A stretch of DNA of 64,000 bases from an uncultured bacterium (GTDB lineage: Bacteria > Babelota > Babeliae > Babelales > Babelaceae). The notes under the pieces are model-generated. The model saw nothing but the letters and a program-made list of their open reading frames with translations, had not been told where the DNA came from and did no database searches. Of the stretch, positions 51,932 through 61,806 are shown one piece after another. Position numbers and translations under genes: made by a program. Within the stretch, counting starts at the first letter, position 1. The number at the start of each line of letters is the position of its first letter. The stretch spans positions 576,001-640,000 of the forward strand of contig OY970209.1 of NCBI GenBank assembly GCA_963713855.1, given 5' to 3'.

Positions 51932-54900
51932 ATGACTGTTTTATATAAAGTTTTCTCGTTTATTTTTATGCTGTTTTTTTGTGTTGCAAACGGCCAGCAA
52001 TCAAGTAAAAGCTATCCATTGCCAGGAGTTTCTAAATGGCCCAACGATGTAGCATTTTCGCCTTCGGGCGGATATCTTGCAACTGCCAATATGGGGTCAA
52101 GTGATGTAACCGTGTACAATGTCGGACCCTCGGGAGTTTTAAGCGGCGCTACATCATACGGCTTACCCCTTGGTCCAGCAATTACTAATGCTGTTGCCTT
52201 TTCACCGGAAAGTTCTCTTCTTGTTTCTGCTAATGGAAGCTCGAGTAGTGTGGCGCTCTTTGTCGTAGAAGAAAGCGGAGCATTGTCGCCGGGTACTTCG
52301 TTTCCTCTGCCTGCTGGCTCTGCTTATCCTAATTTTGTAGCGTTTTCGTCTTCCGGTGATTATGTTGCGACTGCAAACATGTCTAACGATGTTACGATAT
52401 TTAAGGTTGAAGCGGCAAGCTTGGTGGGAGCTACTTCATATCCATTGCCAACGGGTTCTGGTGATCCTCTTAACATCGCGTTTTCACCAAACGGTTTATT
52501 TCTTGCTACGGCGAACGCCCCGAATCATGTTACGGTATTTGCTGTAGGTAATGATGGTGTTTTAAGTCCTGGCACAACATACGCTTTACCACCAGATACT
52601 TCGCCTATGTCGCTGGCGTTTTCGCCGGACGGGTCCTATTTAGCAACCGTCAATCAACTGTCAAATGGCCCCCTGTTTGCTGGCAATGTGACCATATTTA
52701 CCGTGCAATCCGATGGTGTCTTATCAGAACCCACAACGTATCCCTTGCCCGCAGGCTCTCAATTGCCGCAGTCGATAGCATTCTCGCCTAATGGCCTATA
52801 TCTTGGGGTCGTTACTAATATACGTTCAGCTGTAATAATGTTTACCGTTGGGATGGGCGGAGTATTAAACGCAGGGACATCCTATAAACTGCCTGAAGGT
52901 GCCTCTGGCTCTTATTGGCTTAACTTTTCGCCTTCCGGCGCGTATGTAGCTGTAGCTAATGGGACAAATAATATCACCATGTTTTCTGTAACTTCAGAGG
53001 GAGTTCTTAGTGGGGGTGCCAACTTCAACTTGCCATCTGGAGCGACGTTGCCTGAATCCTTTGCTTTTTCTCCAAACGGGTTATATCTTGCTACTGCTAA
53101 TTATGGCTCAAGTAATATTACTGTCTTTAATGTAGGAGCTCATGGAACATTAGCAGCCGTGGGAACTTATGAAGTACTATCAAACGATGTACCACCTAAC
53201 ACATTAGCGTTTTCTCCAAATAACCTATATCTTGCCACAGCCAATGGCATTTCGAGCAGCGTGACTATGTTTAATTTTGCAAATGATGGAAAGTTGAGTA
53301 ACGGTAAGACTTTTGCGTTACCTGGAGGTTTGGGTCTACCCTCCTCAGTTGCGTTTTCGCCAAATAGCTTATATCTCGCTACTACAAGTTCCACTTCTAG
53401 TCCCGCTGCTAACGCTGTCACGGTGTTTCAGGTTGGAGCGGGTGGGACGTTAAGTAACGATGTAACATATAGTGGCAATTTCTTTTACCCCTCGTGGGTG
53501 GCGTTTTCGCCTAATGGCATGTATCTGGCTACCGCAAATTCCATTTCAAATGATGTGACGCTCTTTAAAGTTGCGGCAAACGGAAAACTTAGCGATGCCG
53601 GATCGTACCCCCTTCCTTTGAACTCTATGAGCCCTTATTTGGTAGCATTCTCACCCGATAGTGAGTATCTTGCAACTCCCAACTATTCAAACGATGTGAC
53701 TATTTTTCAGGTTCTCAAAAACGGAACCCTGTCTTCCGGTAAGTCATACGCGCTGCCCGCGGGTTCCACAAGTCCTTTCGGGGCTGCATTCTCTCCGGAT
53801 GGGCTCTATCTTGCTACGTCAAACTTCGGTTCTAGCAGCGTTGCTGTATTTAAAGTGCAAAATGGCGGAGCGCTTACTGAGGGAATTTCTTATGCAATCT
53901 CAAATACTCCGGCCACAGAAGTGGCTGCTGTTGCTTTTTCGCCCAACGGTTTATATCTTGCGACTGCAAACACAGGCCCTTCAACCGTTACACTGTTTAG
54001 TTTTGCTGAAGGGGTGCTTTCTGGTAATAATTCTTACGTCTTGCCGCAGTTATTCACTGGTTCACGAAATCCAGACTCGATCGCTTTCTCGCCTAATCGT
54101 TTATATCTCGTAACTGCAAACTATAACTCAAGTGACGTTACGCTCTTTAACGTTGGCTTACCAAGCAGTGGTTATGCTTTGCAAAATAAAACCTCCTATC
54201 CCTTGCCCTACAACACGGCATTAGGAGCATCACTACCTGCCTCAGTAGCCGTTTCACCGAATAGTTTTCAGGTCGTAACTGCTAATCAACAGACTGATGA
54301 TATAACAGTATTTGAATCAGTGGCTGGTCAATTAATTAACGCGGTCACTTATCCATTGCCTGATAATGCAAAAAACCCGAGCTTTGTACAATTTTCGCCG
54401 GATAATCTTTACCTTGCTGTAGCAAATAGCGGATCAAACAATATTGCAGTTTTCAATGTTACTCAGAATGGAGCTTTAGAGAACACGGCTACTTATCAAT
54501 TACCAGCTGGAGCATTAGATCCTCAAGCACTTGCTTTTACGCTAGACGGTGCCTATCTAGCAACAGCAAATAAGGGCTCGAATGATGTTACCCTCTTTAA
54601 TGTAACAGAAGGTACTTTAAGCAATCCGGTAACAACGCCCTTACCATCAGGCTCTAAAGGACCTGCATCAATCATATTTGTTCCGCTTGGTAGCAATACT
54701 AGTTTATTACTTGTAACTGCTAATAGCGGTTCAAATGACGTAACTGTTTATCTTTTTCAAGACGGTATTCTTAGTAATCCGCGATCTTATCCATTACCAG
54801 CTAACGCTCTTGGTCCTCAATCGATCGCAGTTTCTCCTGATGGAACCCAACTTGCTACGTCAAATAATGCCTCGAATACTATCGCGATATTTACTGTTCT

Positions 54901-55273
54901 GCAGGGAATGCTTAGTCAAGGTACGGTTTATACACTACCTGCTAATTCAACAGGCTGTGTAGCGTTGGCATTTTATCCTTCTGTTTATAATGATAGCGTG
55001 ATTGCGACTGCAAATAGTAACTCGAATGACGTTTCCGTGTTAGTTTTGGAAAGCCCTCAGTCAGGGGATGGGAGCAGCTTGCCTCTTGGTCTTATTATTG
55101 GAACAACTGTGGGGATTCCCCTTGGGCTGAGCTTACTAGTAGCAACCGTTGGAGTTGGTAGTTGGCTTATTTATAAATACCGATATCGATACAAGGGCAT
55201 GGGTCAGGTCAACTTCTTAGGAAATGAAAACTTAAGCGATCCGCTTATCGAAAATGGCGTGGACGTTTTATAA
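51932..55273 (+). CDS. Large beta-propeller repeat protein (21 repeats), type I membrane topology
   Basis: AAGGAG SD, signal, 21 AFSP.G.YLATAN-type repeats, QSGDGSS linker, TM helix, tail; paralog of 38231..41485. Confidence 0.85.
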   Translation: MTVLYKVFSFIFMLFFCVANGQQSSKSYPLPGVSKWPNDVAFSPSGGYLATANMGSSDVTVYNVGPSGVLSGATSYGLPLGPAITNAVAFSPESSLLVSANGSSSSVALFVVEESGALSPGTSFPLPAGSAYPNFVAFSSSGDYVATANMSNDVTIFKVEAASLVGATSYPLPTGSGDPLNIAFSPNGLFLATANAPNHVTVFAVGNDGVLSPGTTYALPPDTSPMSLAFSPDGSYLATVNQLSNGPLFAGNVTIFTVQSDGVLSEPTTYPLPAGSQLPQSIAFSPNGLYLGVVTNIRSAVIMFTVGMGGVLNAGTSYKLPEGASGSYWLNFSPSGAYVAVANGTNNITMFSVTSEGVLSGGANFNLPSGATLPESFAFSPNGLYLATANYGSSNITVFNVGAHGTLAAVGTYEVLSNDVPPNTLAFSPNNLYLATANGISSSVTMFNFANDGKLSNGKTFALPGGLGLPSSVAFSPNSLYLATTSSTSSPAANAVTVFQVGAGGTLSNDVTYSGNFFYPSWVAFSPNGMYLATANSISNDVTLFKVAANGKLSDAGSYPLPLNSMSPYLVAFSPDSEYLATPNYSNDVTIFQVLKNGTLSSGKSYALPAGSTSPFGAAFSPDGLYLATSNFGSSSVAVFKVQNGGALTEGISYAISNTPATEVAAVAFSPNGLYLATANTGPSTVTLFSFAEGVLSGNNSYVLPQLFTGSRNPDSIAFSPNRLYLVTANYNSSDVTLFNVGLPSSGYALQNKTSYPLPYNTALGASLPASVAVSPNSFQVVTANQQTDDITVFESVAGQLINAVTYPLPDNAKNPSFVQFSPDNLYLAVANSGSNNIAVFNVTQNGALENTATYQLPAGALDPQALAFTLDGAYLATANKGSNDVTLFNVTEGTLSNPVTTPLPSGSKGPASIIFVPLGSNTSLLLVTANSGSNDVTVYLFQDGILSNPRSYPLPANALGPQSIAVSPDGTQLATSNNASNTIAIFTVLQGMLSQGTVYTLPANSTGCVALAFYPSVYNDSVIATANSNSNDVSVLVLESPQSGDGSSLPLGLIIGTTVGIPLGLSLLVATVGVGSWLIYKYRYRYKGMGQVNFLGNENLSDPLIENGVDVL

Positions 55274-55486: not shown

Positions 55487-55814
55487 AGTATATACCAGAT
55501 CGCGGTGATATAGTATGGCTTGAATTTGGGCCTCAAAAGGGTAGAGAAATACAAAAAACGGATCTGCTTTGATTGTTTCACCAAAGAATTACAACTCAAA
55601 AGTTGGTCTAGCGTTGTGCATGCCTATTAGGAGCAAAATCAAAGGCTATCCTTTTAAGGTAGTTATAAATGAAGGGTCTGTTAGAGGAGCGATATTAAGT
55701 GATCAAATACGTTCATTGAACTGGTTATCAAGAAAAGCAGTTTTTATTGTCCAATGTGATAATGACTTACTTCATGTGGCTCTAGTAAAGCTCAAGCTTT
55801 TAATTGATCAATAA
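55480..55814 (+). pseudogene. Frameshifted MazF toxin
   Basis: MVKYIPDRGDIVWLEFGPQKGREIQKT then a frameshift near 55560 to SALIVSPKNYN...PI.SKIKGYPF.V...ILSDQIRSLNW..RKA. Confidence 0.8.
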
Positions 55815-58539: not shown

Positions 58540-59121
58540 ATGGTTATAGTCATAGATGCTTATAATGTGCTTAAGGCGGATTTTGGCAATGCCTTTATTC
58601 AACCGCACGTGACTGAGCGCTTTATCGATGACCTGTGGGCATATAGTAAACGTAAGCACCACACACTGCTTGTTGTTTTTGACGGTGGTCCTGATGTGCG
58701 CGCCTCAAGAAGAGTAAAAGATTACCTTCAAGTCATCTATGCGGGTAGATCGCGATCTGCTGATGATGCCATTAAAGAGCTTCTTGAAATACTAAACCCT
58801 GCTGATACTTTGCTTGTAACTTCAGATAGGATGTTGCGTACGTACGCTTGGCGGTATAGTATTAATTCTATTGAGCCATCTCTTTTTAGGCGCTATAGTA
58901 AGTCTTCCAATGTAGTTGAAAAGCCGCGCGTTATTAAAGATAAAAAAGCTCCGGTAAAAAGAACGAATCATGAAAGTAGTGTCGAACTAGATGAACTGAT
59001 GCAAAAGGCCGCACAGGTAACATTTATAAAGGAAGAGGATGTAGCTTTGCCCGAAACTGAAGCGTTAGAAAAGACATCAAAAAAAGAACGAAAACTCTCT
59101 TACCTGATAAGCAAGTTATGA
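58540..59121 (+). CDS. NYN/YacP (Rae1-like) PIN-fold ribonuclease
   Basis: IDAYNV, VVFDG, SADD.I, LVTSDR.L. Confidence 0.85.
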   Translation: MVIVIDAYNVLKADFGNAFIQPHVTERFIDDLWAYSKRKHHTLLVVFDGGPDVRASRRVKDYLQVIYAGRSRSADDAIKELLEILNPADTLLVTSDRMLRTYAWRYSINSIEPSLFRRYSKSSNVVEKPRVIKDKKAPVKRTNHESSVELDELMQKAAQVTFIKEEDVALPETEALEKTSKKERKLSYLISKL

Positions 59122-59549
59122 AAGTACATGAACTAATCTACACGCTTGATACCATAGACGACGTTGCCGAGGACCTTCATGAGCTTCTACCGGACGTTTC
59201 CGTTTTAACATTTAGCGGCAGCCTAGGCGCTGGTAAGACAACCCTTATTCAGGCGCTTTTAAAGCGTTGCGGTATTTTTGACGTAATACAAAGTCCCACA
59301 TTTACCTACTTGTCTCCATACACGAACTCAAGCGGCCAAACCTTTTATCATTTTGACCTCTACCGCATTAAATCATTACAGCATTTTCGTGAAGCCGGCT
59401 TTGAAGAGTATCTTTACGAGCTTAATAGCTGGTCTCTTATCGAGTGGCCCGCAGTCATAAAGCCATTACTAACTTGTAAAGTTGCTGATTTTGTAATCGA
59501 TTATTACGGCCAAGATAGAAGAAAACTAACCTATTCAATTAAAAAATAA
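59118..59549 (+). CDS. tsaE: t6A biosynthesis ATPase TsaE
   Basis: G.LGAGKTT, SPTF, HFDLYR, IEW. Confidence 0.95.
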   Translation: MKVHELIYTLDTIDDVAEDLHELLPDVSVLTFSGSLGAGKTTLIQALLKRCGIFDVIQSPTFTYLSPYTNSSGQTFYHFDLYRIKSLQHFREAGFEEYLYELNSWSLIEWPAVIKPLLTCKVADFVIDYYGQDRRKLTYSIKK

Positions 59550-59624: not shown

Positions 59625-60667
59625 ATGCAAAGGCAAATCTATGATGCGCTATTTGTCACTGTTATGGCTGTTCGTTTTTCGAATCTCATATATGGTGAAG
59701 GCTTTGGGCCTTACACGATGATACCTGTTTTTAACGGATTTACGCCTATTTATTTGCTTAATAAAGGTGATACAGTTCGTTGTCATCACTATGACACAAT
59801 AAGGATAGCTAATGTTCGCATTCACTCTGTAACTGAGTCTGTAATAATAAAGTTTAGTAACGAGGAGCAAGTGTGGGTTGCAGCAGACCAACGCATCTAT
59901 GTACCTGTTAGATACAAACATCGTTTTGTTTATGAACTTTATCCTTGTTATGACGATGATAGCTGGCGGACTTATTTTTTTGGCTTGAGTTCTGCACGGT
60001 TACTTCGATCGAGTTTCTATTTCATAAGCCACTTCCTTTTTACAGTTTAGAAATTGCGGGGTTAGACCAAAAATTCTGTTTGATAGATCAAGTGGAGGTG
60101 CATAACTTTCCCTGGACTGCAGGCGTAGAGATTACATTTAGCCATGACGGCTTATTTGATTTTGCAAGTTATGCATTTGCTAATTTCAACGTATATGGAG
60201 TTGTGATTTTTGCTGGGGTTGCTGTTGGAGCTGCTGCAAAATATGCCTATGATAAAACCAAACAGAAATGGGAAAATACGGGTTTTAGAGTTAAAGTAGA
60301 TGCAGCAGACAAAAAGCCCGAGGAGGATTGTGATCCGGCATTTCCTCATACATGCTCATACATGGATGCACCGTACCACCATCATCAGAGTCGGGGAAGT
60401 GCTGAAGGCGGCAAAAGTAGAGCGCCTAAGAATGGTCTAGCTGCTTTGCGCAATTCAATCCCAATTGGTGGAAGTAGTTATGCTCGTATTGGTGTTAGTG
60501 AAGGCGAAATAGTTAAACTTCCCTACAGTAATAACTGTATTTTTCATGGATTTGTAGAGTGGGATGATTTGGATAAATCTGCCCGAAGTATGCTTGAGAA
60601 AGCTGGCCTAGTGAACAAAAAAGGCAGGATTTTATATCATGTTACCAAAATTAGAATTTATTTATAA
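59625..60667 (+). CDS. Hint-domain polymorphic toxin split by a -1 frameshift near 59975-59981
   Basis: Frame A: EGF...T.I....G..PI..L.KGD.V (Hint N). Frame B is open from 59963: VTSI...FYSLEI...V.VHN (Hint C), hydrophobic segment, then toxin-like YH...KS.AP.NG..AL.NS...FHG...W..L. Confidence 0.7.
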
Positions 60668-61250
60668 TAAGGAAAAAGGTGCGATACAACTTTACGCGTC
60701 TAGCAAAAGTTTTTCAAGAATACTTTTGTTTTTAGATGTACTGAATGTCATCGAAGATAAGTATCTTTTTTTAGATAAATTGCTAAACAATCAGTCGAGC
60801 GAGCTTTCTCCGTCAATTAGCAACATTGGATATATAGAGAATGAATATTCTTATACTGAAATTTTGCCACACGGTATTGAATCTGAAGATTTCTTAAAAT
60901 TTGTTTTTTGCTCTACGCCAAGTTATCCGCAACCCAACCTCACTACATGGATTTATAAACAAGCTAATCGCTATTACTTAGAGATAACTCCTAATTATCC
61001 CTACGAATATAGAGATCCTAAGCCAGATGAGAGGTACATATCGTTTGAAGACTTTATGAAGGATTATAAGCCCTTCTATAAAGAAACTATAACAAGACAG
61101 GATCTTCAAGAGTTAAGAAATTTATTTGCCAAAGCGACTATAGAAACCTATAAAAACATGTATTACGACGCAATGCATGCTTTAAGTGAAACTGAAGCCT
61201 GTAGGCACATGGATGTGGATGATCAAGATAAAAGGCAGAAACTTATGTAA
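60639..61250 (+). CDS. Candidate immunity protein
   Basis: Overlaps the toxin 3' end, same strand, no signal peptide; TWIY....LEITP.YP motif. Confidence 0.55.
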   Translation: MLPKLEFIYNKEKGAIQLYASSKSFSRILLFLDVLNVIEDKYLFLDKLLNNQSSELSPSISNIGYIENEYSYTEILPHGIESEDFLKFVFCSTPSYPQPNLTTWIYKQANRYYLEITPNYPYEYRDPKPDERYISFEDFMKDYKPFYKETITRQDLQELRNLFAKATIETYKNMYYDAMHALSETEACRHMDVDDQDKRQKLM

Positions 61251-61276: not shown

Positions 61277-61501
61277 TCATTTTTTTTGTCCTGCTTTGTA
61301 TTCAGCCATCGCACATCTGAGCGAAGTGCCGAATTGTCGAACACAATATTCGTCACCGCTACCACAATAGCCGGCATCGCTACAACAACGGCCAGGATCG
61401 CAATCACGATTGCATTTGCATCTGCCTGAAGGATCTTCTTTAGAAAAACTTGCCGAGGGTAGGGCAAGGATAAAAATCGCTAGTATTAATGACGTTTTCA
61501 C
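61277..61501 (-). CDS. Secreted hevein-like (CBM18-like) cysteine-rich peptide, 74 aa
   Basis: GTG start with GAGG SD; signal; CKCNRDCDPGRCCSDAGYCGSGDEYC. Confidence 0.8.
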   Translation of the reverse strand: MKTSLILAIFILALPSASFSKEDPSGRCKCNRDCDPGRCCSDAGYCGSGDEYCVRQFGTSLRCAMAEYKAGQKK

Positions 61502-61629
61502 AGAGTACCTCAATTCTATTTTTGCTAAGACTTCATCTTGAAAAAGTGCCGACTTGTCAACCAAAATGTTAATCCGCAATAGCGCGATTACTGCAACAGT
61601 CGGGACGTGAGCTGATTATGAGTGCTTTT

Positions 61630-61806
61630 TTAGCGCCCTGGTAACAACTCACAGTATGCACGGCCTGCTCCACAAAATCCAAATTGGCTGCAACAGCGGC
61701 CTGCGTCACAGTCATTATCAGATTTACATGAGTGCTGCGCATTTTCCGCAAGACAAACAGATGATGCGCCCATGAGTAGTAAGACTACTATATATACTTT
61801 TTTCAT
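61630..61806 (-). CDS. Secreted hevein-like (CBM18-like) cysteine-rich peptide, 58 aa (below ORF-track cutoff)
   Basis: Manual translation MKKVYIVVLLLMGASSVCLAENAQHSCKSDNDCDAGRCCSQFGFCGAGRAYCELLPGR*; AGAAGGGA SD. Confidence 0.85.
   Translation of the reverse strand: MKKVYIVVLLLMGASSVCLAENAQHSCKSDNDCDAGRCCSQFGFCGAGRAYCELLPGR

Follow-up and report, generated by a model that had tools for sequence, protein, structure and literature searches.

A Hint-domain toxin gene spread over two reading frames in an uncultured Babelota bacterium, its likely cognate immunity gene and its relatives in the phylum

Gene layout at the locus

We analyzed a window of 64,000 nucleotides (positions 576,001 to 640,000 of contig OY970209.1) in the genome of an uncultured bacterium of the family Babelaceae, phylum Babelota (also called Dependentiae or TM6), which is assembled as one contig of 1.52 Mb with 41% GC. 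Positions 59625-60667 of the window, on the forward strand as are all features below unless stated, are one toxin gene spread over two reading frames. Frame A (59625-60050) has a signal-like start followed by the motif G-E-G-F...KGD.V. The predicted Sec signal peptide (59625-59696; best 11-residue hydropathy, 2.03) ends directly before the N-terminal part of a Hint domain (59697-59966), in which position 1 is Gly (59700) and block B reads A-D-Q in place of T-x-x-H. The frame changes within 59963-59990, where a run of seven T lies at 59975-59981 and about eight to nine conserved residues are apparently absent. Frame B, open from 59963 to 60667, begins with the C-terminal part of the Hint domain (59969-60106), which is without the F-block His and ends with His-Asn at 60101-60106. 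Phe is found at position +1 (60107), and here starts a Gly/Ala-rich hydrophobic segment (60107-60244; best 19-mer, 1.66) that would become the new N-terminus if the Asn were cleaved. The gene ends with a toxin tip of 95 aa (60347-60667), a homolog of the CdiA-CT of PDB 5T87 (CDD cd20695) as judged from sequence and model, with the residues that are invariant in this tip family: His (60377), Arg (60485), and His-Gly (60545). The next gene (60639-61250), which shares 29 nt with the end of the toxin ORF, encodes a likely cognate immunity protein of 203 aa, for which no family was found in Pfam or NCBIfam.

The whole toxin gene has about 350 codons and lies between tsaE (59118-59549), a conserved upstream flank, and small Cys-rich genes. 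The slot behind tsaE varies in relatives. A fixed toxin slot at this place was considered and rejected, since a Hint, tip, or immunity module was found within about 1.5 kb in none of 11 relatives. Two of the Cys-rich genes, on the reverse strand (61277-61579 and 61630-61806), encode small secreted-looking proteins matching the hevein-type family Chitin_bind_1 (E = 2.7e-5 and 2.7e-6, respectively, the latter just over the cut-off), a domain best known from eukaryotes. Farther upstream, 51932-55273 encodes a beta-propeller repeat protein of 1113 aa with a signal-like start and a hydrophobic end, possibly of a large paralog family with the many ORFs of 1109-1158 aa in the genome, and 55569-55814 is a PemK/MazF-like toxin ORF without the first 25 profile positions. 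Scans for promoters, terminators, and repeats at the toxin locus gave nothing above chance.

Frames A and B are assigned to one gene because a single intact protein of 353 aa, P0002, aligns to both of them (44% over 105 aa of frame A and 47% over 221 aa of frame B). With frame B as query, only three of 304 candidates matched, namely the protein of the window itself along with P0002 and P0003, and no closer relative of the window Hint part was found beyond P0002. Neither frame alone reaches any family in the Pfam/NCBIfam scan. The Hint parts of the window are below the cut-off of PT-HINT (PF07591) and match a custom profile of 55 related Hint domains (E = 4e-11 for frame A and 1.4e-4 for the Hint end in frame B); the PT-HINT cut-off itself is passed by four paralogs in the genome and by P0003, and P0002 gives only E = 0.011. 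Thus, the Hint identity proposed in the preceding sequence-only reading is supported by way of homologs. That reading had found a Hint toxin concealed in three hypothetical ORFs, and all of its motifs lie where it placed them, including the signal-like N-terminus and the Gly at position 1 and Phe at +1 from which it expected no splicing. Its description of a toxin without a CdiA stalk also agrees with the gene length and with the lack of an adjacent cdiB. Two features escaped it: the window copy is a broken gene and not merely a hidden one, and the system is not a singleton and belongs to a phylum-wide family.

The toxin tip

By sequence and by model, the tip of the window protein is homologous to the CdiA toxin of Cupriavidus (PDB 5T87). 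The sequence comparison gave E = 3.4e-6 for the single sequence and 2.2e-23 for the profile, and the tip model (pLDDT 84) matched 5T87 with a Foldseek E of 7.8e-5 and a Z score of 9.5 (rmsd 1.3 A, 66 residues aligned). His, Pro, Leu, Ser, Arg, and His-Gly are invariant in 26 tip sequences. Neither Pfam nor NCBIfam has a family for the tip. Using exact peptide patterns, we found it in nine loci outside the phylum (Bacillus, Paenibacillus, Streptomyces, Tenacibaculum, Enterococcus, and others), where it follows Rhs, Cys-type PT-HINT, and LXG stalks. The tip profile matched 1,248 clusters at 50% identity, and inspection by eye of the 150 listed showed the tip at the C-terminus with only two exceptions. 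The tip was thus rightly likened to CdiA/Rhs C-termini in the sequence-only reading. The same family (cd20695) has been reported in Rickettsia, which are likewise intracellular, in the available parts of two sources (PMC9111745; 10.1101/2023.02.26.530123).

The tip is a likely RNase. BECR RNases consist of a helix and a four-stranded meander with catalytic His/Arg; the tip has invariant His, Arg, and His, and the fold matches to RelE, ParE, BrnT, and CdiA-Kp342 are weak (Z 2.8-3.9), and since none exceeds 3.9 we take RNase as the likely reading and go no further. SRLase1 was set aside as the identity of the tip because the spacing of its conserved residues (Arg70, Asp72, His85, His97) differs. 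The available text of the SRLase1 preprint (10.64898/2026.09.18.752725) does not mention 5T87, nor did a term search find it in that of a preprint on BECR classification (10.64898/2026.08.28.747851). The tip motif may resemble that of Ntox41. In the open-access literature, we found no activity test of a 5T87-type toxin.

The likely immunity gene

Within the phylum, 80 of 83 tip matches are immediately followed by a homolog of 60639-61250; because of this linkage, the overlapping downstream gene, already a candidate in the sequence-only reading, is a likely cognate immunity gene. The tip profile was seeded with the first 19 phylum loci, all of which have the homolog behind the tip, and about 60 of the tip-immunity pairs are independent of these seeds. 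Outside the phylum, five of the nine loci have it. Of 261 phylum genomes, 53 have an immunity match and 45 of these also have a tip match, with no tip match in any other genome; the remaining eight have immunity matches only. No tip precedes 45 of the 125 immunity matches.

Comparison of the immunity profile with PDB sequences gave weak unrelated matches only, and a search of the ESM Atlas returned only clusters without names. Homology to the CdiI_N protein of the same genome was rejected (probability 6%). The model of the immunity protein (pLDDT 80) is a predicted alpha/beta fold, for which Whirly/PUR folds and the CdiI of Burkholderia dolosa were found at Z 6.1-6.8. The match to the latter (5FFP; Z 6.2, rmsd 3.9, 126 residues aligned) and that to the CdiI of Enterobacter cloacae (4NTQ; E = 0.27) do not reach Z 8 and stand level with those to Whirly/PUR proteins; the modeled fold is thus weakly like Whirly-type CdiI, which we take as a lead only. 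Three predictions of the tip-immunity complex scored 0.28, 0.52, and 0.01 against a mark of 0.32 and are evidence for neither side.

The remaining four outside loci have a short, helical, unrelated immunity protein instead; these include Streptomyces, Tenacibaculum, and one other bacterium (L011-L014), in which the downstream protein is HEAT-like. One toxin tip would therefore be paired with two unrelated immunity families, and the family found here is a second, unnamed candidate immunity family for the 5T87-type toxin.

Hint residues and predicted cleavage

The residue comparison covered a non-random sample of 86 different Hint domains, all nearly complete and with E no higher than 1e-8, after removal of duplicates and of rows containing more than 25 gaps. 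Position 1 is Gly in 72 of the 86 domains and Cys in nine, and the C-terminal His-Asn is kept in 85. In the non-Cys group, T-x-x-H of block B is found in only 2/77 domains and the F-block His in 66/77; the corresponding numbers for the Cys group are 9/9 and 7/9. According to the available part of PMC7765530, the Thr and His of block B take part in the N-terminal reaction, and cleavage by A-type BIL domains takes place at their terminal Asn. With Cys1 and T-x-x-H lost and the F-block His and His-Asn kept, the Hint family looks reduced to C-terminal cleavage. The F-block His aids Asn cyclization. The claim of the sequence-only reading that only C-terminal Asn cleavage should remain thus holds for the family as far as the residues are concerned. 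The window domain, with no Cys or Ser at position 1, no T-x-x-H, and no nucleophile at +1, lacks the hallmarks of a splicing intein of class 1. Since the F-block His is absent from both the window copy and its nearest homolog, however, the predicted cleavage is doubtful in this sub-branch.

A hydrophobic leader stands directly before the Hint domain in 61/77 non-Cys domains. After the Asn, a hydrophobic segment (median 37 residues, 30% Gly+Ala) follows in 65/77 non-Cys domains and in 0/9 Cys domains, and the net charge after this segment is positive in 49/76 members. These features define a compact Hint variant that is naturally cut down to predicted C-terminal cleavage.

Occurrence in the genome and in Babelota

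The genome has six further Hint loci. Two of them are intact paralogs, PT-HINT+Ntox33 with DUF4279 and PT-HINT+Ntox21 with CdiI_N and orphan modules; of the others, one has an unnamed tip, one is interrupted by both a stop and a frameshift, and two are without an evident tip. At the Ntox21 locus (L003:3223-5640, corresponding to G000:C1:1265223-1267640), an array of orphan modules lies behind the intact toxin gene: first CdiI_N, then another small gene, and then a fragment like Ntox37 that is joined to an ORF resembling an immunity gene.

PT-HINT was found in 89 of the 261 phylum genomes (72 over the cut-off) and in only 1 of 14 control genomes, and P0002 matched 54 of the 261; kin are not independent in these counts. 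In 30 PT-HINT loci and one region of another genome (G009), the tips vary and the Hint domain is mostly behind a signal-like leader. Ntox21, Ntox33, Ntox37, 5T87-type, and unnamed tips follow the same type of stalk, so a survey for variable C-termini after His-Asn, as proposed with the sequence-only reading, did find them, and a genome of the same genus (L018) places the window tip type on a different stalk. The family thus shows two features of polymorphic toxins: a shared trafficking part to which different toxin domains are joined at the C-terminus, and an immunity-family gene linked directly downstream of the tip.

Certain family members have no tip at all. In three of them (L058:477-1310, L059:1168-2019, and L067:1270-1977), the tail after His-Asn of the signal-Hint protein is an Ala/Gly-rich hydrophobic peptide without an enzyme tip, and such proteins could be self-released membrane-active peptides.

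Two proteins of the same order (P0061 in L020 and P0106 in L021) carry the NCBI name 'polymorphic toxin-type HINT domain-containing protein [Candidatus Babeliales bacterium]'; annotation at the level of the domain thus exists already. As one named Hint family member is labelled Promethearchaeota archaeon and the phylum survey covered Babelota, we do not claim that the family is restricted to this phylum.

The break in the window copy

We consider the break in the window copy likely to be real decay and the gene a likely pseudogene, which probably yields no toxin yet retains an intact immunity gene. The other explanation, an assembly error in a gene that is intact and active in the organism, is possible, and we do not regard it as probable. 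In its favor, the break is at the 7-T run, and the family profile, flat there, does not favor a gap (38-40.5 bits). Furthermore, five frameshifts were found in 4 of 102 conserved genes when 400 kb of the same-genus genome was compared (four shifts in three genes, and one in a gene that is presumably FtsH-like), including genes that we take from their motifs to be rpoB and rpoC. At G000:C1:648637-657082, the former is in two frames and the latter in three. The indel errors in this assembly call for caution with other split-gene findings in the genome. However, this rate (about 0.04 shifts per kb) gives a chance of only roughly 4% for a gene of 1 kb, and two of the seven Hint loci in the genome are broken, one of them by two lesions. 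The read-through alignment with P0002 is also better with about nine unknown residues after 59966 (score 270) than with one (259). The Trp-x-x-Ala-x-x-Leu strand, whose Trp, Ala, and Leu are kept in 81, 79, and 70 of the 86 Hint domains, respectively, has no good counterpart in the window copy; since this strand and the F-block His are apparently absent, the window protein may be inactive even if it is read through. The repeat scan found no repeat that would explain the break.

Relation to known toxin systems

The published systems are compared here as described in the available parts of the cited sources. The tip is homologous to those of CdiA-CT/CdiI of Cupriavidus taiwanensis (PDB 5T87; cd20695/cd20694) and Rickettsia rCRCT-3a. 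In contrast to the former, the Babelota protein of about 350 aa has no filamentous CdiA stalk, so that with no cdiB adjacent the locus does not have the composition of a CdiBAI system; the window immunity protein has no sequence match to the CdiI of 5T87, which is described as a helical bundle, whereas ours is predicted to be alpha/beta.

The PT-HINT toxins of the Sec/T2SS class described by Zhang et al. (2012, PMC3482391) likewise have a signal peptide, a HINT peptidase, a variable C-terminal toxin, and an adjacent immunity gene. That paper lists signal peptide and HINT among Sec-type polymorphic toxins, and its Additional File 1 may hold such architectures. Unlike the toxins of this class, the Babelota proteins have the Hint as first mature domain, with Gly1, without T-x-x-H, and with a hydrophobic segment after it; none of the nine Cys-type PT-HINT proteins in our sample has this segment. 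Class 1 MafB proteins of Neisseria (PMC4287609) likewise have a signal peptide, an A-type BIL domain before a variable tip, downstream immunity, and orphan cassettes. However, MafB has the DUF1020 N-terminal region before the BIL, whereas the Hint domain of the Babelota proteins follows the signal directly and no Pfam match to DUF1020 was found. The ABP toxins of Gram-positive bacteria (PMC12582261) also combine a Sec signal, an N-terminal pro-domain, a membrane-active helix unmasked by cleavage, a toxin, and immunity. ABPs depend on a BetaH domain together with an S8 protease as a separate protein, whereas the N-terminal domain here is Hint, the pro-domain would be its own protease, and no S8 protease was found among the flanking genes scanned; this is an analogy only.

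Among the matches listed, we found no literature pairing Dependentiae, Babeliales, Babelota, or TM6 with Hint, PT-HINT, or polymorphic toxin, and a term search of PMC6561590 and PMC4776705 found neither 'toxin' nor 'intein'. Thus, this kind of polymorphic toxin is known, and its variant, widespread in the little-studied Babelota, is apparently undescribed, as is the likely new immunity family.

Possible mode of action

The architecture of the proteins, the homology of the tip, the swapping of tips, and the linkage of the downstream gene are observed. On this basis, we propose that the intact members are probably exported by Sec and cut themselves at the His-Asn of the Hint domain, freeing an entry segment and a likely RNase tip against competing bacteria, and that the window probably holds a decayed copy. 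Signal peptidase would remove the leader right before the Hint domain; N-terminal splicing would then be needless, and the loss of Cys1 and of T-x-x-H in block B would follow from it. Cyclization of the Asn, aided by the F-block His and the penultimate His, would release the C-terminal part. Autocleavage has been reported for the BIL domain of CdiA (PMC4725963, available part). The freed N-terminus, a Gly/Ala-rich segment of about 37 residues, would insert into the target membrane and bring the tip inside, where its His, Arg, and His would cut RNA; the cytoplasmic immunity protein would protect the producer and its kin. In ABP toxins, which offer the nearest working model, the helix unmasked by cleavage drives receptor-free entry (PMC12582261, available part). 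Sec export reaches the periplasm, and the proposal holds no step for leaving it. As a more tentative extension, the family may form, throughout this phylum of protist parasites with small genomes, a self-arming diffusible toxin in which the predicted C-cleaving Hint is both cap and trigger and the Gly/Ala peptide of about 37 residues carries swappable nuclease tips. Equally tentatively, this toxin might act on competing bacteria, or on the mitochondrion of the host, without needing a stalk, a protease partner, a receptor, or an injection apparatus.

The hydrophobic segment could also be a stop-transfer anchor, which would leave the Hint domain outside and the tip in the producer cytoplasm bound to its immunity protein, to be freed or activated by a signal as in toxin-antitoxin or abortive-infection systems. 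The members have a signal and one hydrophobic segment, and the net positive charge that follows in 49/76 of them also fits such an anchor; one paralog (L001) is among genes that are toxin-antitoxin-like by their names. Nevertheless, a self-directed toxin is unlikely, as the tips are common to the exported Rhs, LXG, and CdiA toxins, and the frequent orphan immunity (45/125 matches not behind a tip, and eight immunity-only genomes) is expected in inter-strain conflict. We give a similarly low probability to a host-directed effector, whose released tip would attack RNA in the protist host or in its mitochondrion; the immunity protein would then serve only to keep the producer safe until export. 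The phylum members in culture are indeed intracellular parasites of protists (PMC6561590, PMC12172432), and they likely export many effectors by Sec (PMC6561590), as far as the available text of these sources goes. However, host-directed toxins of endosymbionts are without immunity genes according to the available part of Zhang et al. (2012, PMC3482391), and both the swapping of tips and the arrays of orphan immunity genes speak for competing bacteria as the targets.

If rival bacteria are indeed the targets, about one-third of the genomes sampled would carry a weapon system for use between bacteria, in a phylum that has been known chiefly for parasitizing its hosts. Competition between bacteria inside protist hosts thus becomes testable.
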